Positions 1,800 to 54,224 of a DNA stretch of 64,000 bases are shown here, one piece after another (the first letter of the stretch is position 1; each line of letters starts with the position of its first letter). A program made the translations under genes and the position numbers. Source of the stretch: an uncultured Oscillospiraceae bacterium (GTDB lineage Bacteria > Bacillota > Clostridia > Oscillospirales > Oscillospiraceae); NCBI GenBank assembly GCA_944387615.1, contig CALXFP010000001.1:1088-65087 (forward strand), written 5' to 3'. The notes below the pieces were generated by a model that was not told the DNA's origin, made no database searches, and saw only the letters and a list, made by a program, of their open reading frames with translations.

Positions 1800-3429
1800 A
1801 GAATACGCCTCCTTCCTGCACGGACTCCTTCTGGATACGCAGAATCTCCAGAACGCTTTCCTTGGAGGTGCCTACCCGGGGAATCTTGCAGCCGTTTTCT
1901 TTTTCGTACTGTGCCACCACGCCGCGCTTCAGAATGGTGACCTTCAGAGGGTCCACATTCAGCAGCCGCTTCAGGTCACTGTAATCTCCGTCGTAAGAGC
2001 GGAAATACAGTGCCAGGTGATCCCGCAGAAGCTGACGGCTCAAAGCTGCGCTTTGGGTGTCTTCCGGGTCCAGCTCCACATACAAATTCAGGAAGGAACG
2101 GCCGGTTTCGTCATATTCTTTGATGGCGAACCAGGTTTCGATGGGCAGACGGGACAGGGTAATCACCCGCTCGATTTCCCGCTGGGTAATGCGGGTGAAG
2201 CCGGCGATGTCAATTACCGTGGGAATCCGGTCTACATACTCAAATTGCGGCAGCTCGATTTTGTCCGACGCATTGCGAAGCCGCAGGCAGCGGTATACAT
2301 CGCCCACCCGGTAACGCAAAAATGCGCCGCCTTTCAGCACGGTGATGACCAGCTCGTATTTCTGACCGGCAACCAGCTCATCCATCAGATAGGTCTTGGG
2401 AACATAACCGGGCTCGGACATTTCCTTATACAGTTCCATCTCCGGAATGAACTCATAGAAGCATGCGTCGGGGAACAGAACCAGTCCGTCTTTGCTCCAG
2501 GTTTCCGTACCCATGCACGACGGCTCTGTGCCGCCGGCAATTTCCAGAGGACGGATACCCCACGCTTCTTCCAGCTCATTTTTGTAAAGAGCGGTGTCGG
2601 TGCCTACGCAGACAAAACCCTGCAGGCGGAACAAATCCTTGGGTTTGACGGAAACGCCGTCCCGTTTTTCCCGATACCGGGCCGCCATCAGCCGCCAGAG
2701 CATCTTGGGATTCATGGACAGCAGGTCTTTCAGATGTATTTTCCCTCCGGATTTCTGAATCAGTGTATCCAGGCTCTTGGTTGCGCCGTAGAGCACGCTG
2801 CTCATACCGAAGAACAGATTCATATCATGCTTGATGGCCAGCTTATAGCCGTCTTTCATCTGCTGGCCAAAGGACATTTTCCGGGCTTCCCGCACCGAGG
2901 GCATAAACCGAAGGTAGATTTCCGAACTGATCAGATCCGGGAACATACCGGTAGCATAGGGCAGGGGAGCAAGGCTGTACAGCACCCGCATGCCGGGACG
3001 GACACAGAAGTGATTGCGTCCCCGGCTGGTTGCCAGGAGCATGGCGCCGAGAATGTTGGTTTTGTATGTTTCCAGCATGCTCTCGGTGTAAGGTGCCCGT
3101 TTGGAGGGGAAATCGCCGCCTTCCCAGGTGGTGTGCAGCCAGAGCACCGGCTTTTCCGGCAGCATCTCATCTTTTTGCGGGAGCAGAACATCGGCGTAGT
3201 CTTCAAATTTTGTCAGAGGCACTTTGGTACGGAACTCTTCGACACTGGTGGGCACACCCTGCCGGAAGAAGCGCTTGCCCAATTCACAGTGGGACATCAG
3301 CTCAATCTGCTCCAGCAAAAGCCGCTTCTGGATGTTCATGTACTCCGGCAGTGTCAGATCCAGAAAACCGCAGTATTCCTGCCATATTTCGTTTGCGGGG
3401 CATTTGCGCAGCTTTTCTTCAAACGTCAT
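1786..3429 (-). CDS. GH3 (auxin-responsive promoter) family acyl-adenylate/amido synthetase
   Basis: GH3 motifs: FRTKVPLTKFEDY, AGGTE (motif II-like), FYEFIP, YELVITVLKGGAFLRYRVGD (motif III). Confidence 0.85.
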   Translation of the reverse strand: MTFEEKLRKCPANEIWQEYCGFLDLTLPEYMNIQKRLLLEQIELMSHCELGKRFFRQGVPTSVEEFRTKVPLTKFEDYADVLLPQKDEMLPEKPVLWLHTTWEGGDFPSKRAPYTESMLETYKTNILGAMLLATSRGRNHFCVRPGMRVLYSLAPLPYATGMFPDLISSEIYLRFMPSVREARKMSFGQQMKDGYKLAIKHDMNLFFGMSSVLYGATKSLDTLIQKSGGKIHLKDLLSMNPKMLWRLMAARYREKRDGVSVKPKDLFRLQGFVCVGTDTALYKNELEEAWGIRPLEIAGGTEPSCMGTETWSKDGLVLFPDACFYEFIPEMELYKEMSEPGYVPKTYLMDELVAGQKYELVITVLKGGAFLRYRVGDVYRCLRLRNASDKIELPQFEYVDRIPTVIDIAGFTRITQREIERVITLSRLPIETWFAIKEYDETGRSFLNLYVELDPEDTQSAALSRQLLRDHLALYFRSYDGDYSDLKRLLNVDPLKVTILKRGVVAQYEKENGCKIPRVGTSKESVLEILRIQKESVQEGGVFCVTE

Positions 3430-43508: not shown

Positions 43509-43544
43509 AATCCGGCGAAGCCTTGCAAAGGGCTTCGCCGGATT
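43509..43544. terminator. Bidirectional terminator
   Basis: aatccggcgaagcc...ggcttcgccggatt. Confidence 0.7.
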
Positions 43545-43550
43545 GGCGTT

Positions 43551-44135
43551 TTAAGGGGTGGTCCGCAGGATCTCCTGGGCAATCTCTTTACGGGAAGTGC
43601 AGCGATCCATGGCCTGTTTTTCAATGTAACGGTGGGCATCCGGCTCGCTCATGTGATACGTTTCAATCAGTAACCACTTGGCCCGGTTGATCAGCCGGAT
43701 TTCCTCCATTTTTTCCTCCACGGTGGAGGCTTTCTTTTCCAGACGGCGCAGCCGCTCTCTGGCGGCAGCCATCCATTTGAGCCCCTGCTGCAATGTCTGG
43801 GCAGGGGTGGGCTTTGCCAGCGTAAATACCCCTTGGGAAAGAACCTTGGCGTTGGTCTGCTCGTAGACTTCAGCCCGAACCAGAAGCAGCACCACACTGC
43901 CGGGACACTGGCTGACGTCGATTGCGAACCGTGTACCGAATTCATCCGGAAGCGGGGCGTTGATGATGATAAAATCAAAACTTCTGCGCAGCAGCTCCCG
44001 ACGGGCAGCGGCAGCATTGGCGGCAATACATACCGGGGAATATTCTGTTTCCGGGAGCATGGGCATCAGGGCATCCAGAAATTTCTGCACCCCGCAAACC
44101 ACCAGAACACTGTAACATCGTTCTTGATATGCCAG
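43551..44135 (-). CDS. ANTAR antiterminator with pseudo-receiver domain (AmiR/NitR-like)
   Basis: C-terminal RAKWLL...SEPDAHRYIEKQAMDR; receiver fold lacks the acidic pocket and phospho-Asp; probable CTG start 7 nt after GGAGG. Confidence 0.88.
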   Translation of the reverse strand: MAYQERCYSVLVVCGVQKFLDALMPMLPETEYSPVCIAANAAAARRELLRRSFDFIIINAPLPDEFGTRFAIDVSQCPGSVVLLLVRAEVYEQTNAKVLSQGVFTLAKPTPAQTLQQGLKWMAAARERLRRLEKKASTVEEKMEEIRLINRAKWLLIETYHMSEPDAHRYIEKQAMDRCTSRKEIAQEILRTTP

Positions 44136-44169
44136 ATGGGTTCCTCCTTTCGGTTGAATTTCGGCAGGC

Positions 44170-45378
44170 TCACCGATTGCAGAAGCAGTCAATCAGAGCC
44201 TTGGGGAAGTGCTGGGACAGGAAGGTACTGGCGGCTGCGCTGCGGATGGCAGTGGGCAGGGACAGAGGCAGGGCCTGTAAATGGGCCACATCCCATTGAG
44301 CGGCGGTGAACAGATTCACATTTGCCGCCTGGGGCAGGGGTAGCTGCTGGGAAATTCCTTCCAGACCAGCCCAGATCAGCAGCGCAAAGGCAAGATACGG
44401 ATTGGCGGTGCAGTCCGGAGAGCGCAGCTCTGCCCGCCGGTATTCTCCGTGGGCAGCGGGAATCCGCACCAGCATGGAGCGGTTGTCATTGGACCAGGAA
44501 ATGAACTTCGGGGCTTTGTGAGAGCCGAGGCGGCGGTAAGACTGCTCCGTCGGATTCAAAAACAGGGTAATTTCCGGTACCCGGTTCAGGATGCCTGCCA
44601 GCATGTGCTGCATCCGGTTGTCCCCCGGGCCTTGTACGGAGATGTTGATGTGAAATCCGCTGCCGGGGTGTTCCGGCAAGGGCTTGGGAGAAAAGTCCGC
44701 AGCCAGACCGTTCCGGGCGGCAATGGTTTTTACCACGGTGCAGAAGGTGTGGGCATTGTCCGCGGCGCGGAGAGCGTCGGAATAACGGAAGTCAATTTCA
44801 TTCTGTCCCGGGCCTTCCTCATGATGGGAAGATTCCGGCTGAATGCCCATCTGTTCCAGGGTCAGGCAAATTTCACGGCGGACATTTTCACACTTGTCCT
44901 CCGGGGCCACATCCATGTAGCTGGCCTGGTCGTAGGGGATTTTGGTGGGCTGGCCGTTTTCGTCCAGCTGGAACAGGTAAAATTCCAGCTCCGAGCCAAA
45001 GGCAAAGGTGTAACCGGCATCGGCTGCGTCGGAAATGGCCCGCTTGAGAATCCCCCGGCTGTCCAGAGGAAACAAGGTGCCGTCGGGATGGGTAATGGTG
45101 CAGAACATCCGAACCACCCGCCCATGCTCCGGACGCCAGGGCAGAACCATAATGGTGGCGGGGTCAGGATGCAGGAATAGGTCCGAGTGTACTTCGTCAC
45201 CAAATCCGGCAATGGCAGAGGCATCCAGGGCAATGCCATAACGGAAAGCCCGTTCCAGCTCCTGAGGCATAATGGAGATGTTCTTGGGGCGGCCGAAGCA
45301 GTCGCAGAAGGCAAGACGGATGAATTTTACATCCTCTTCCTGAATATATTGCATAACCTCTTGAGGTGTATATTCCAT
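44170..45378 (-). CDS. Glutamine synthetase type I-like protein with substituted active-site residues
   Basis: ELEFYLF, HHEEGPGQNEIDF, PKP..GSG.H, NRS..RIP, ELRSPD..ANPYL; the YEAP flap is replaced by HKAP. Confidence 0.88.
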   Translation of the reverse strand: MEYTPQEVMQYIQEEDVKFIRLAFCDCFGRPKNISIMPQELERAFRYGIALDASAIAGFGDEVHSDLFLHPDPATIMVLPWRPEHGRVVRMFCTITHPDGTLFPLDSRGILKRAISDAADAGYTFAFGSELEFYLFQLDENGQPTKIPYDQASYMDVAPEDKCENVRREICLTLEQMGIQPESSHHEEGPGQNEIDFRYSDALRAADNAHTFCTVVKTIAARNGLAADFSPKPLPEHPGSGFHINISVQGPGDNRMQHMLAGILNRVPEITLFLNPTEQSYRRLGSHKAPKFISWSNDNRSMLVRIPAAHGEYRRAELRSPDCTANPYLAFALLIWAGLEGISQQLPLPQAANVNLFTAAQWDVAHLQALPLSLPTAIRSAAASTFLSQHFPKALIDCFCNR

Positions 45379-45544
45379 AGGGAAACCTGCTTTCTTGTGA
45401 AGATATGGGCTTCCGGAAAAACCGGAATGGAATATGTTTACTATAGCACATTTGCGCCAGGGTTTCCACTGGTTTTTCGGCTGGGGCCGCCCATGGCGAA
45501 CTTAGCAATATAGCTAAAGAAAAAGATATTTTTTGTGCAAGGTG

Positions 45545-45573
45545 TTGACAAAGGAAAAAACTTGTTGTAACAT
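45545..45573 (+). promoter_or_regulatory. sigma-A promoter of the purC operon
   Basis: TTGACA-17-TAACAT. Confidence 0.7.
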
Positions 45574-45584
45574 AAAACAGCAAG

Positions 45585-45636
45585 GGCAAAGGCGTCTTTG
45601 AGTGTGTACTCTTAGACGCCTTTGTCGATTTTTTGT
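45585..45636 (+). promoter_or_regulatory. Leader terminator overlapping ANTAR-type hexaloop hairpins
   Basis: GGCAAAGGCGTCT pairs with AGACGCCTTTGTC, followed by a U-tract; embedded GGC-AAAGGC-GTC and GAG-TGTGTA-CTC. Confidence 0.7.
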
Positions 45637-45767: not shown

Positions 45768-46481
45768 ATGGAAAAGGGTAAACAGCTTTACGAAGGAAAG
45801 GCAAAGAAGGTATTTGCCACAGAAGATCCCCAGCTGCTGATTGTCTCGTACAAGGACGATGCCACCGCCTTCAATGGCCTGAAAAAGGGAAGCATCGCCG
45901 GAAAAGGCATTATCAACAACCAGATGAGCAACCGGCTGATGGCGAAGCTGGAATCCGCAGGCATCCCCACCCACTACGTCCAGGAACTGAACCAACGGGA
46001 AACCCTGGTGAAAAAGGTATCCATCGTGCCGCTGGAAGTCATTGTGCGCAACATTGCCGCAGGCTCCTTCTCCAAGCGTTACGGCGTGGAGGAAGGTGTG
46101 GTATTTGATCAGCCTACCATTGAGTTCTCCTATAAAAATGATGAGCTGGGTGACCCGCTGCTCAACCGCTACCACGCCCAGGCCATGCACCTGGCAACGC
46201 CCCGGGAAATTGACATTATCCAGACCTATTCCTTCCAGGTCAACGAGTTTTTGAAGGAATTCTGGAAAAGCTGCGGCGTGACATTGGTGGATTTCAAGCT
46301 GGAATTTGGCCGCCTGGAAGACGGCACCATTGTGCTGGCAGACGAAATCAGCCCGGATACCTGCCGTCTGTGGGACGCCAAAACCGGGGAAAAGCTGGAC
46401 AAAGACCGCTTCCGCCGGGATATGGGCGGCGTGGAAGAAGCTTACGAAGAAATTATGCGCAGACTGGAAGCAAACCTGTAA
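45768..46481 (+). CDS. purC: SAICAR synthetase
   Basis: LYEGKAK, PLEVIVRN, DFKLEFG, LADEISPD. Confidence 0.96.
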   Translation: MEKGKQLYEGKAKKVFATEDPQLLIVSYKDDATAFNGLKKGSIAGKGIINNQMSNRLMAKLESAGIPTHYVQELNQRETLVKKVSIVPLEVIVRNIAAGSFSKRYGVEEGVVFDQPTIEFSYKNDELGDPLLNRYHAQAMHLATPREIDIIQTYSFQVNEFLKEFWKSCGVTLVDFKLEFGRLEDGTIVLADEISPDTCRLWDAKTGEKLDKDRFRRDMGGVEEAYEEIMRRLEANL

Positions 46482-46497
46482 TTTGGAGGAAAACCCA

Positions 46498-47772
46498 ATG
46501 CAAACTTGTGCGATTGTTGGAATTAACTGGGGCGATGAAGGCAAGGGCCGGATGGTGGACCTGCTGACCCGGGATTTTGATGTGGTGGTGCGCTACCAGG
46601 GCGGCGGCAACGCCGGTCATACGGTAATCAATTCCTATGGCAAATTCGCTCTGCATCTGCTGCCTTCCGGCATTTTCCGTCCGGGTGTTGTGAACATTCT
46701 GGGCAACGGCGTTGCCTTGGACCCGGAGAACCTCTGGCAGGAGATGGAGCAGGTTACCTCCAAGGGGGTTGCCCTGACGCCGGAGAATCTGAAAATCAGC
46801 GACCGGGCATCTGTGCTGATGCCCTGGCACCGGGTACTGGACGGACTGGAAGAAGCCCGTCTGAAGGATAAAAAATACGGCTCCACCAAGCAGGGTATCG
46901 CGCCGTTCTACTCTGACAAATACCAGAAGAAAACCATTCTGGCAGGCGAGCTGCTGTATCCGGAGCAGCTGAAGACCCATCTGCAGGATCTGCTGGAGTG
47001 GAAAAACCTGACCCTCACCGGTGTTTACGGCGCACCTGCTGTGACCATGGAAGAGCTGGAGCAGTGGCTGGATAATTACTGTGAAAAAATCAAGCCCTTC
47101 ATCTGCGATACCGGCGCCTTCCTGGCCCAGGCCCAGAAGGAAGGAAAGAAGATCCTCTTTGAGGCCCAGCTGGGTGCGCTGCGGGATCTGGACTACGGCA
47201 TCTATCCTTACACCACCTCTTCCAATGCCATTGCTGCCTATGCACCGGTTGGTTCCGGACTGCCCAGTGTGAAGCTGGACGAAGTGGTGGGCGTAGTGAA
47301 GGCTTACTCCACCTGTGTCGGTGAAGGCCCCTTCGTCTGCGAACTGTTCGGAGAGGAAGCCGAGCAGCTGCGTCAAGCCGGCGGTGAATACGGCGCCAAG
47401 ACCGGCCGCCCCCGTCGGGTAGGCCCGGTGGATATTGTGGCTACCCGCTATGGTGTAGAGGTTCAGGGGGCTACCAACATTGCCCTGACCAAAATGGACG
47501 TGCTGAGCTATATGGATAAGATTCCTGTGTGCAGCCGCTATACCCTGGACGGCCAGCCCACCGATCGGTTCCCGTTCCCGGTGCTTCTGAACCAGGCAAA
47601 GCCTGTTATCGAATATCTGGAAGGCTGGAAGTGTGATATTTCCGGTGTCAGAACCTGGGAGGATCTGCCCCAGGCAGCCAAGGACTATGTTCTGTACCTG
47701 GAAGAGCAGATCGGCTGCCACATTGGCTACGTTTCCGTAGGCCCGGAGCGGGACAGCATCATTTACAGATAA
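46498..47772 (+). CDS. purA: Adenylosuccinate synthetase
   Basis: WGDEGKG, GGGNAGHT, TGRPRRVG, SVGP. Confidence 0.96.
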   Translation: MQTCAIVGINWGDEGKGRMVDLLTRDFDVVVRYQGGGNAGHTVINSYGKFALHLLPSGIFRPGVVNILGNGVALDPENLWQEMEQVTSKGVALTPENLKISDRASVLMPWHRVLDGLEEARLKDKKYGSTKQGIAPFYSDKYQKKTILAGELLYPEQLKTHLQDLLEWKNLTLTGVYGAPAVTMEELEQWLDNYCEKIKPFICDTGAFLAQAQKEGKKILFEAQLGALRDLDYGIYPYTTSSNAIAAYAPVGSGLPSVKLDEVVGVVKAYSTCVGEGPFVCELFGEEAEQLRQAGGEYGAKTGRPRRVGPVDIVATRYGVEVQGATNIALTKMDVLSYMDKIPVCSRYTLDGQPTDRFPFPVLLNQAKPVIEYLEGWKCDISGVRTWEDLPQAAKDYVLYLEEQIGCHIGYVSVGPERDSIIYR

Positions 47773-47782
47773 GGAGAGAATC

Positions 47783-49198
47783 ATGAAAGACCATTATGAA
47801 TCCCCCTTGGGTTCCCGATACGCATCGGAATATATGCTCCGGCTTTTCTCCAGCGATATGCGAATCCTGACCTGGAGACGGCTGTGGGTTGCCCTGGCCC
47901 GGGCAGAGCAGGAACTGGGCCTGCCGGTGACGAAGGAGCAGGTGGCCCAGCTGGAAGCCCATCTGACGGACATTGACTACGCTTGTGCCGCCGCCAGGGA
48001 AAAAGAAGTGCGCCATGATGTGATGGCCCATGTCTACGCCTACGGCAAAGTGGCACCGGACGCAGCAGGCATCATCCACTTGGGCGCTACCAGCTGCTAC
48101 GTTACCGATAATGCCGACCTGGTGATCTACCGCCAGGGCCTGGTGTACCTGAAAGAACAGCTGAAGAAAGTCCTGGCCAATCTGGCGAAATTTGCTGATG
48201 CCTACAAGGCTATGCCCACGCTGGGCTATACCCACTACCAGCCTGCCCAGCTGGTGACGGTAGGCAAACGAGCAACACTGTGGATGCAGGACTTTGCCTC
48301 CGACCTGGAAGAACTGGAATTTGTGATTCACAGCATGAAGTTCCTGGGCTGCCGGGGCACCACCGGCACCGAAGCCAGCTTCCTGGAACTGTTCGACGGC
48401 GACCGGGAGAAGATTGACGAGATGAACCGGCGCATCAGCGCCGCTTTCGGATTTGAAAGCTGCTTTGATGTCTGCGGCCAGACCTATCCCAGAAAGCTGG
48501 ACAGCCGGATTCTCAACTGCCTGTCCTCCATTGCCCAGAGCTGCTACCGGATGGCAAATGATATCCGCCTGCTGCAGCATGACCGGCAGGTGGAAGAACC
48601 CTTTGAAAGCAGCCAGATTGGCTCTTCCGCCATGGCTTACAAGCGTAACCCCATGCGCAGCGAGCGAATCTGCTCTCTGGCCCGATACCTGATGGCGGAC
48701 GCCATGAACGCCCCCATGACGGCTTCCGTCCAGTGGCTGGAGCGGACCCTGGACGATTCTGCCAACCGCCGGATCTCCATGCCCGAGGGATTCCTCTGCG
48801 CCGATGCCATTTTGCGCCTGGCGCAGAATGTTACCGACGGCCTGCACGTCAATGAAAAAATCGTGGAAAAGACCGTCCGGGAGTACCTGCCCTTTATCGC
48901 TACGGAAAATCTGATGATGGAAGCGGTCAAGCGGGGCGGCGACCGGCAGCAGATCCACGAGATTATCCGCACCTGCTCCATGGAGGCTACCGCCCGGATG
49001 AAGGCCGGAGAAAGCTGGGATCTGCTGGCGTCTCTGGCAGAACATGAAGAGTTCGGCATGAGCAAGGAAGAGATGGAAGCCGTGCTGGAGCCTTCCCTGT
49101 ACATCGGCAGATGCCCGGAGCAGGTAGAGCGGTATCTGGAAAAATTGCAGCCTATTTTGTCTGATGTAACCGCAGAAACTGCGGAGATTACCTTATAA
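47783..49198 (+). CDS. purB: Adenylosuccinate lyase
   Basis: [25 protein letters not shown]. Confidence 0.95.
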
Positions 49199-49211
49199 CG
49201 AGGAGTATACC

Positions 49212-50741
49212 ATGGAAGAAAAAATTCTGGTTCTGGACTTTGGCGGCCAGTACAACCAGCTGATTGCCCGCCGGGTTCGGGAGCAGCATGTTTACGCAGA
49301 AATCAAGCCCTACAATGGCATTACCCCCCAGCAGATTCAGCAGGCGGGCTACCGGGGCATTATCTTTACCGGCGGCCCCAACAGCGTCTATGATCCCGAG
49401 TCACCCCATTACGACCCGGCCGTTCTGGAACTGGGCATTCCCATTCTGGGTATCTGCTACGGCGCTCAGCTGATGGCCTATATGGCCGGCGGCCGGGTAG
49501 ACAGCGCCAAGGATTCCAGCGAATACGGCAAAACCCAGTTTTATACCAGCCAGAGCCTGCTGTGGAAGGACATTCCCGAAAGCAGCATCTGCTGGATGAG
49601 CCATACCGACTATATTGCCCAAGTCCCGGACTCCTTCCGGGTCATTGCCCATACCGACAAGTGCCCCTGCGCCGCTATGTGCGACGAAGCGCGCAAACTC
49701 TATGCGGTGCAGTTCCATCCGGAAGTGACGCACACCCAGTTCGGCAAGCAGCTGCTGACGAACTTCCTCTTTGATATCTGCGGCTGCGAGGGCAGCTGGA
49801 AGATGGAGGACTTTGTAGCCCGGTCCATTGAAACCTATCGCCAGAAGCTGGAGGGCAAGCGGGTACTGCTGGCCCTGTCCGGCGGCGTGGATTCCTCTGT
49901 GGCAGCAGTGCTGCTGCACAAGGCCATCGGCAAGAACCTGGTCTGCGTGTTCGTAGACCACGGCCTGCTGCGTAAAGACGAGGCAGACTTTGTAGAAAAT
50001 ACCTTCCGCCAGATTTTTGACCTGAACCTGATCCGGGTCAACGCCCAGGAGCGGTTCCTGACCAAGCTGGCGGGCGTAACCGAGCCGGAGAAGAAGCGCA
50101 AGATCATCGGTGAGGAGTTTATCCGGGTGTTTGAGCAGGAAGCCAAGAAGCTGGGCAAGATCGACGTGCTGGTGCAGGGCACCATCTATCCCGACGTGGT
50201 GGAAAGCGGCGCAGGCGATGCCTCCACCATCAAGAGCCACCACAACGTGGGCGGTCTGCCGGACGTGATTGCTTTCGACGAAATTCTGGAACCCCTGCGG
50301 GAACTGTTCAAGGATGAAGTCCGGGAAGTGGGCACCCAGCTGGGCATTCCCAAGGAACTGGTGTGGCGGCAGCCTTTCCCCGGCCCCGGTCTGGCTGTGC
50401 GGATTATTGGAGAAATTACCTGGGAGAAGCTGGAACTGCTGCGTCAGGCTGACGCGATTTTCCGGGAGGAACTGGAAAAGGGCGGTGCAAGCTCCAATCA
50501 ATACTTTGCCGTACTGACAGATGTACGCAGCGTAGGTGTTATGGGTGACGGCCGGACCTACGGCAGGACCATTGCCCTTCGGGCCGTGACCACCGATGAC
50601 TTTATGACGGCAGAGTGGACCCGGCTGCCCTATGAGGTGCTGGAGCGAGCCAGCAGCCGCATTACCAATGAGGTGAAGGGCATCAGCCGGGTAGTCTATG
50701 ACATCACCAGCAAACCCCCTGCCACGGTGGAATGGGAGTAA
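49212..50741 (+). CDS. guaA: GMP synthase (glutamine-hydrolysing)
   Basis: [29 protein letters not shown]. Confidence 0.97.
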
Positions 50742-50785
50742 TACGAATCCATCTTTGATCCAAATAACGAATCAGGAGGTTTCCT

Positions 50786-54224
<3,439 letters not shown>

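Follow-up and report, generated by a model that had tools for sequence, protein, structure and literature searches.

We analyzed a window of 64,000 nucleotides (the whole stretch of DNA examined, positions 1,088 to 65,087 of the forward strand of contig CALXFP010000001.1, GenBank assembly GCA_944387615.1) from an uncultured Oscillospiraceae bacterium, in which two adjacent minus-strand genes code for a protein related to glutamine synthetase (GS), P0001, and for an antiterminator of the ANTAR family, P0002. An RNA element and a row of biosynthetic genes are found on the opposite strand. The features considered here, in window coordinates, are the following.

43509..43544, minus strand: terminator-like hairpin of 14 bp, 9 of them GC, that begins 7 nt past the ANTAR stop codon
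43551..44135, minus strand: pseudo-receiver ANTAR gene, P0002 (194 amino acids [aa] from CTG 44135), in an open reading frame (ORF) that remains open back to TTG 44192
44143-44150, minus strand: ribosome-binding site (RBS) of the ANTAR gene, AAAGGAGG, 7 nt ahead of the CTG start
44170..45378, minus strand: GS-like gene, P0001 (402 aa), identified by its ORF, Pfam domains and alignment to solved GS structures
45440..45468, minus strand: candidate operon promoter, TGGAAA-17 nt-TATAGT with TG, by consensus match only
45523-45551, minus strand: alternative candidate promoter for the GS-like/ANTAR operon, likewise by consensus match only
45582..45634, plus strand: ANTAR-type hexaloop hairpin with terminator in the purC leader, recognized by its fold, its likeness to leaders of type III GS (GSIII) genes and covariation
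45768..54224, plus strand: purC-purA-purB-guaA-glmS-pyrG, a co-oriented row downstream of the attenuator, identified with Pfam

The pair has the arrangement of the clostridial glnA-nitR genes, with the GS-like gene directly upstream of the ANTAR gene and a single terminator after the latter. This hairpin, which faces a convergent RNHCP gene, is likely the end of a two-gene operon. The reading frames that had been assigned to the two proteins from the sequence alone in an earlier note (the original prediction), 44170-45378 and 43551-44192, are correct as ORFs, but for the ANTAR gene CTG 44135 is the most likely start, rather than the overlapping TTG 44192. The RBS AAAGGAGG precedes this CTG, and the resulting gap of 34 nt from the GS-like gene and the protein length of 194 aa agree with 53 homologous loci, which have a median gap of 33 nt and a modal ANTAR length of 194 aa. 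The choice of gene callers is the upstream TTG, which gives a protein of 213 aa overlapping the GS-like gene. On the plus strand, Pfam identified as neighbors two P-type ATPases, a TrxB-like gene, the convergent RNHCP gene and the divergent purC-to-pyrG row. Minus-strand ORFs flanking the pair, one of them of 1523 aa, had no Pfam matches and were discarded as shadows of plus-strand genes. As had been noted originally, no histidine kinase is found among the neighbor genes of the pair.

The Pfam domains of P0001 are Gln-synt_N (81 bits) and Gln-synt_C (287 bits), in a GSI-alpha fold, and its best NCBIfam model is the type I GlnA model TIGR00653 with 321 bits, under the equivalog cutoff of 429. 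Its residues were checked by alignment to the GS of Paenibacillus (7tdp) and of Bacillus subtilis (4lnf), which bore out the predicted 402-aa GS-like protein with its metal and nucleotide ligands in place and its flap altered. P0001 retains the E-x-E, HHE, NEIDF, His, SYxR, NRSxxxRxP and ExR motifs. The flap PGYEAP has become GSHKAP with a one-residue deletion, and Lys288 stands at the position of the catalytic flap Glu (E327 of Salmonella, E304 of Bacillus). The VNGSGMH of the reference enzymes reads HPGSGFH, and the Asn-to-Pro change that had been taken as a further sign of a pseudoenzyme is real in the sequence but not diagnostic, since canonical housekeeping GSI-alpha proteins of the same order carry C, A, S or N at this position. 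Asp61 occupies the position of B. subtilis Arg62, the residue of Gln feedback; 13 residues are deleted after His243-x-Asn245, and the alignment stops at residue 405 of the 442 of 7tdp, the C terminus being about 28 residues short. The C-terminal thong helices alpha14 and alpha15 join the two rings of GS. The last thong helix appears to be gone from P0001, as judged from the alignment with the helix assigned by its description in PMC9249791.

These traits are shared by a subfamily of short GS forms (see below), 42 of which were aligned. The ligands of metal, ATP, phosphate and glutamate (E130, E132, E187, E194, H243, E317, R283, R300, R305 and R319) are invariant or nearly so, and Asp52 (the equivalent of Asp50) and Tyr154 are fully conserved. 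Lys288 is present in all 42 and also in all 54 short forms of the set used for the tree, showing the flap loss to be clade-wide. Position 61 is Asp in 24 of the 42 and position 62 is usually Glu; the Arg62 equivalent is replaced by Asp, Gly or a neighboring Glu. A fixed Lys288 beside invariant or nearly invariant ligands is a pattern in keeping with selection that maintains ligand binding but not the usual chemistry. An AlphaFold2 (AF2) model of P0001 built with 42 homologues reached a predicted local distance difference test (pLDDT) score of 92, and Foldseek matched it with a template modeling (TM) score of 0.96 to the GS of Methanosarcina mazei (8s59) and of Paenibacillus (7tdp).

In P0002, Pfam gave 63.7 bits to ANTAR and 23.3 bits to Response_reg, the latter below its cutoff of 30.2. 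The profile of 42 ANTAR homologues matches the response regulator Rv1626 (1s8n) with an E value of 1e-25, and this comparison confirmed the predicted receiver with no acidic pocket and with Asn in place of the phospho-Asp. In the family, the acidic pair has become of the Ser-Ala type, the phospho-Asp has become Asn, and the Thr is Val or Lys, the Lys being retained. P0002 itself has Cys-Gly at the acidic pair and Asn78 at the phospho-Asp position, which is Asn in 70 of 84 GS-linked ANTAR proteins, partners of Glu-flap GS included. Its AF2 model (pLDDT of 92.9) consists of the receiver, a long helix (residues 112 to 160) and the ANTAR helices, with TM scores of 0.75 to EutV (6ww6) and 0.61 to AmiR (1qo0). 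As this receiver is not phosphorylatable, only a protein or a small molecule can provide the input of P0002.

To describe the distribution of the pair, we used 201 genomes of the same order, from which about 105 ANTAR loci were fetched. ANTAR homologues are present in 103 of the 201 genomes, and in about 85 of the 105 loci the gene immediately before it, in the same orientation, codes for a GS. These GS genes come in two forms, a long one, mostly of about 439 aa with the flap Glu retained, and a short one, mostly of 398 to 405 aa with a G-x-x-K-A-P flap, the internal deletion and the short C terminus. Every ANTAR protein at least 44% identical to P0002 is partnered by the short form. The short form has an intact frame of 396 to 414 aa in 53 genomes of many families, and the aligned members have a mean column identity of 68% with 72 invariant columns. 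In a quick maximum-likelihood tree, with supports (Shimodaira-Hasegawa-like approximate likelihood ratio test [SH-aLRT]) that come from the same quick method, ANTAR-linked GS genes form one clade (98) separate from the housekeeping GSI-alpha. The Lys-flap group lies on one side of a single branch (89), nested within Glu-flap forms, and one change is needed to account for it. In other ANTAR-linked lineages the flap Glu has become Q, L, A or G; it is kept in all 12 housekeeping GSI-alpha genes sampled, and the housekeeping GSI-alpha of the order have the canonical D50 loop with Arg62 and the PGYEAP flap. The copy in the window appears on this tree as a paralogue on a long branch, and a second copy from the same genome groups with genomes of the same family.

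Two further observations concern this subfamily. Lys-flap genes from different families of the order (such as f19, f9, f14, f8 and f17) cluster tightly and not by family label, which hints at lateral spread of a GS-like/ANTAR cassette. In one genome (locus L016, G195:C16), the GS-like ORF (2119-3246, minus strand, 376 aa) has lost the metal ligands and the flap region, next to an ANTAR partner that is well conserved (55% identical). This ORF may be a more extreme dead sensor, or else a decaying or misassembled gene.

The genome to which the window belongs is a metagenome-assembled genome of 2.1 Mb, 80% complete, with three GS-family genes. A true GS does exist elsewhere in it, a GSIII of 698 aa on contig C62. 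The third gene is part of a second pair, located on the minus strand of contig C226 (L001:874-2706) with some 20 nt of upstream sequence before the end of the contig, and made up of a short GS of 402 aa with the flap LGRDKAP and an ANTAR protein of 195 aa, which are 63% and 51% identical, respectively, to those of the window. All the Lys-flap genomes have at least two GS-family matches, and each of the five examined closely has two GSIII genes. In four of these genomes, one of the two GSIII genes is 3 to 7 kb away from the pair.

The RNA element in the purC leader begins with a hairpin (45582-45599) of a 6-bp stem and the loop AAAGGC. It overlaps the 5' arm of an intrinsic terminator with a stem at 45585-45626 and a U tract to 45634, and just ahead of it there is a promoter-like site (45545-45573). 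The GSIII leaders of relatives contain a common hairpin, in which a stem of 6 bp carries the loop A-A-N-G-R-C, and there too the hairpin, either its 3' half or the whole of it, doubles as the 5' arm of an intrinsic terminator. The hairpin-terminator precedes GSIII in at least 11 loci, the glutamate dehydrogenase (GDH) gene in one, the GSIII of the same genome and, in the window, purC. Based on this likeness, the element at 45582..45634 is a probable ANTAR target. Since it is palindromic, it was also considered as a minus-strand leader of the GS-like gene, which was rejected; we assigned it to purC because the plus-strand version fits the consensus, has the U tract and follows the promoter-like site. 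The GSIII leader of the same genome (contig C62, L003:868-922, plus strand) carries a variant hairpin, AAAGAC-loop ACUGAC-GUCUUU, inside a strong terminator, and the two ANTAR paralogues of this genome might read different loops. Divergent from this GSIII leader there is a class-II amidotransferase-like gene.

Pairing of the stem was evaluated with 25 aligned hairpin instances. The search pattern did not include the three outer pairs of the stem, and these pairs covary, with 86.5% of cells paired against 71% in shuffled alignments and a covariation score of 0.444 against 0.194, a value reached by none of 500 shuffles. When the register of the alignment was slid, only 36 to 52% were paired. Rfam had no relevant family for the element at either gathering or E-value thresholds. 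A scan of the 201 genomes for GRCAADGRCGYC followed by a gap and T5 was unspecific, as a reversed-pattern control gave comparable counts, and therefore we give no co-occurrence statistic. A scan of the genome itself for dual hexaloops returned mostly coding-sequence noise.

The genes downstream of the element, from purC to pyrG, encode enzymes that draw nitrogen from aspartate or glutamine, and this row is presumably the unit regulated in this genome. On contigs with an 85%-identical GS-like protein, the genes divergent from the pair are those for GSIII, an AmtB::PII fusion and AsnB (L138, 1-5641), and the attenuator of the GSIII leader (L138:5672-5726, minus strand) is nearly identical to that of the purC leader. 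A 98%-identical contig (L141, 1-5611) has the layout of the window, the divergent slot being occupied by purC to glmS. The pair and the attenuator thus abut, in this species, genes that spend the nitrogen of aspartate or glutamine, and the attenuator-controlled unit seems to have been exchanged.

The closest known system is the clostridial glnA-nitR, of which the GS-like/ANTAR pair is a variant. In Clostridium saccharobutylicum NCP262, Clostridium acetobutylicum and Clostridium thermocellum (Clo1313_2031/2030), a GSI-alpha gene is likewise followed by a receiver-ANTAR gene (PMC6316151, PMC4676874, PMC9888227). NitR of C. saccharobutylicum is reported to induce the genes of GS and glutamate synthase (GOGAT) on nitrogen limitation, supposedly by antitermination, with a mechanism and an input described as not fully understood (PMC6316151). 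In C. thermocellum, the genes of the ANTAR protein and of the type I-alpha GS adjoin each other, the GOGAT cluster and a GSIII gene (PMC4676874, PMC9888227). The GS of the window appears to differ in belonging to the distinct short subfamily, with the flap Lys, no Arg62, the deletion and the short C terminus. Further differences are that P0001 scores below the GlnA cutoff, that a GSIII serves as the working GS and that the presumed regulated genes next to the pair are those from purC to pyrG.

Other ANTAR systems provide the precedent for a protein partner. AmiR of Pseudomonas aeruginosa is also a kinase-less pseudo-receiver ANTAR and is sequestered by AmiC, which binds a ligand and whose gene shares an operon with that of AmiR (PMC12591593, PMC3369931), although AmiC has a periplasmic-binding-protein fold in place of a GS fold, and the contact, solved for AmiC-AmiR, is one that we infer here. 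NasS-NasT of Paracoccus denitrificans is a two-protein sensor-ANTAR system of nitrogen assimilation that dissociates on ligand binding (PMC3795266), but NasS binds nitrate or nitrite and differs from P0001 in both ligand and fold. The targets of EutV, NasR and AmiR are dual hairpins with a hexanucleotide loop that has A1 and G4, by which ANTAR proteins recognize it, on a short stem competing with a terminator (PMC3369931). The purC-leader element resembles them in a hexaloop with A1 and G4 that overlaps the terminator and departs from them in its single conserved hexaloop and in having no Rfam match.

For the GS fold as a reporter of glutamine, the precedent is the control of TnrA and GlnR by the GS of B. 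subtilis. In that type of enzyme, glutamine bridges Glu304 and Arg62, and the E flap, the D50 loop and the thong helices bind GlnR/TnrA (PMC9249791). There, a GSI-alpha dodecamer reports on glutamine via a bound regulator. However, the B. subtilis protein is a full enzyme with the Gln-Glu304-Arg62 latch, whereas here the latch residues are Lys288 and Asp61 and the last helix appears to be missing, and the partner is an RNA-binding protein without the SRF tail found in GlnR. The changes in the E flap, the D50 loop and the thong helix fit, without proving it, a remodeled partner-binding surface.

We consider it rather probable that P0001 is a sensor of ligands, derived from GS, and that it gates the NitR-like antiterminator P0002 in the manner of AmiC and AmiR. 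The pair would then probably be a kinase-less nitrogen-status switch of gut Clostridia operating by contact between the two proteins. In this scheme, a GSI-alpha paralogue would have passed from enzyme to ligand-binding regulator; it may still bind nucleotide, metal and glutamate or glutamine, perhaps also 2-oxoglutarate, as putative ligands. The flap Glu, which closes the site and handles ammonium, would have given way to a fixed Lys, with a presumed loss of GS activity. Depending on the nitrogen status, a GS-like oligomer would hold or release the ANTAR dimer, as AmiC does with AmiR, this being the supposed direction of control. The free ANTAR protein would bind the hexaloop hairpin (A-A-N-G-R-C) in nascent leaders and thereby block the overlapping terminator. 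The genes regulated in this way would be GSIII-amtB/PII-asnB or gdh in relatives and purC-purA-purB-guaA-glmS-pyrG in this genome. A similar gating had been put forward in the original prediction, and the flap loss, the pseudo-receiver, the separate GS and, by comparison, the hairpin-terminator speak in its favor, but the argument built on Asn264 is weak.

Several points weigh against a sensor that gates the antiterminator. In the classical glnA-nitR pair the GS is active, so linkage alone does not imply sensing. That the flap Lys would abolish activity in this scaffold is a prediction from the residue pattern. Residues F19, R21, R167, R168 and S184, which make up the putative pocket for 2-oxoglutarate as described in archaeal GS (PMC10799026, PMC11957540), are invariant in the 42 short forms. 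We nevertheless rejected 2-oxoglutarate as a singled-out ligand, given that F19, R21 and a small residue at position 35 occur equally in the housekeeping GSI-alpha of the order, and conservation of the pocket therefore does not discriminate a ligand. At the RNA level, the single conserved hexaloop is not the canonical pair, the second stem-loop being the variable tip of the terminator. The target slot of the window holds genes of nucleotide and amino-sugar synthesis and not a GS operon, which makes the link to nitrogen assimilation indirect here. No GS-ANTAR fusion was found among eight longer ANTAR homologues, all of them singletons with unrelated partners, which is weak evidence. When P0001 and P0002 were modeled as a complex, the score was 0.30, with the mark at 0.32, and this counts neither for nor against binding.

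The alternative that survives best, which we regard as somewhat unlikely, is that P0001 has remained an enzyme, be it a GS of low activity or a ligase joining a gamma-glutamyl group to some other amine. It would simply be cotranscribed with the ANTAR protein, as in the classical clostridial glnA-nitR operon, and the ANTAR protein would take its signal from another source, such as PII/GlnK or a metabolite bound directly to the pseudo-receiver. The conserved ligands of metal, ATP and glutamate, with Asp52 and Tyr154, would be expected of a working ligase as well; the subunit fold is predicted to be that of an intact GSI-alpha, and the type I GlnA model is the top score of P0001. Moreover, the regulated operon of the 85%-identical relative includes the AmtB::PII fusion, so that the alternative input could be supplied by a PII protein. 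Against an enzyme stand the invariant flap Lys, the loss of the feedback Arg and the apparent loss of the last C-terminal helix, and the 321 bits are below the NCBIfam cutoff. Loss of the flap Glu has been repeated independently only among ANTAR-linked GS (set against the 12 housekeeping genes sampled), the L016 protein has no metal ligands and yet is kept beside an intact ANTAR gene, and one or two GSIII genes are also present in the genomes examined.

It is quite improbable that P0001 regulates some other protein, for example by mixed assembly with, or inhibition of, GSIII or an amidotransferase, and that the operon reflects nothing more than shared nitrogen-dependent expression. The GS family is indeed regulated via oligomer state and small protein partners (PMC10651883, PMC11957540), and the apparent loss of the thong helix suggests an altered assembly. 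However, subunits of GSI differ greatly from those of GSIII in both length and sequence, the ANTAR gene is the sole constant neighbor in the approximately 85 loci, and the GSIII neighbor varies, being absent from the window and 34 kb away in another genome (G122). That P0001 is a decaying glnA pseudogene without function, as its catalytic-site substitutions, internal deletion and truncation might suggest, has next to no probability and is contradicted by the intact frame in 53 genomes with its 68% mean column identity and 72 invariant columns, as well as by the confident AF2 model and the two copies kept in this genome.

A broader version of the sensor reading is tentative and, in our view, doubtful. 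It holds that the GS fold is the missing receptor of NitR-type ANTAR proteins, with a catalytically disabled oligomer that would read glutamine, ATP or 2-oxoglutarate and act on the antiterminator by direct contact, and that here a duplicated pair with its attenuator has been rewired from GSIII-amtB-asnB to purC-pyrG, as a dedicated regulator of the spending of nitrogen donors.

In many Clostridia, the genes of nitrogen assimilation are headed by an ANTAR regulator of the NitR type, and in a 2025 review of RNA-binding antiterminators both NitR and glutamine are absent (PMC12591593). If P0001 is the receptor, it would represent a second independent GS-fold nitrogen sensor beside the B. subtilis GS-TnrA/GlnR system, acting at the RNA level, and a clear transition from enzyme to pseudoenzyme with a datable single origin. 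The old question of the input of NitR-type regulators becomes directly testable, since no more is needed than an 18-nt RNA and two proteins that are small and soluble. The same switch, if true, would account for the way in which nitrogen is controlled in Oscillospirales that are abundant in the gut and depend on GSIII.

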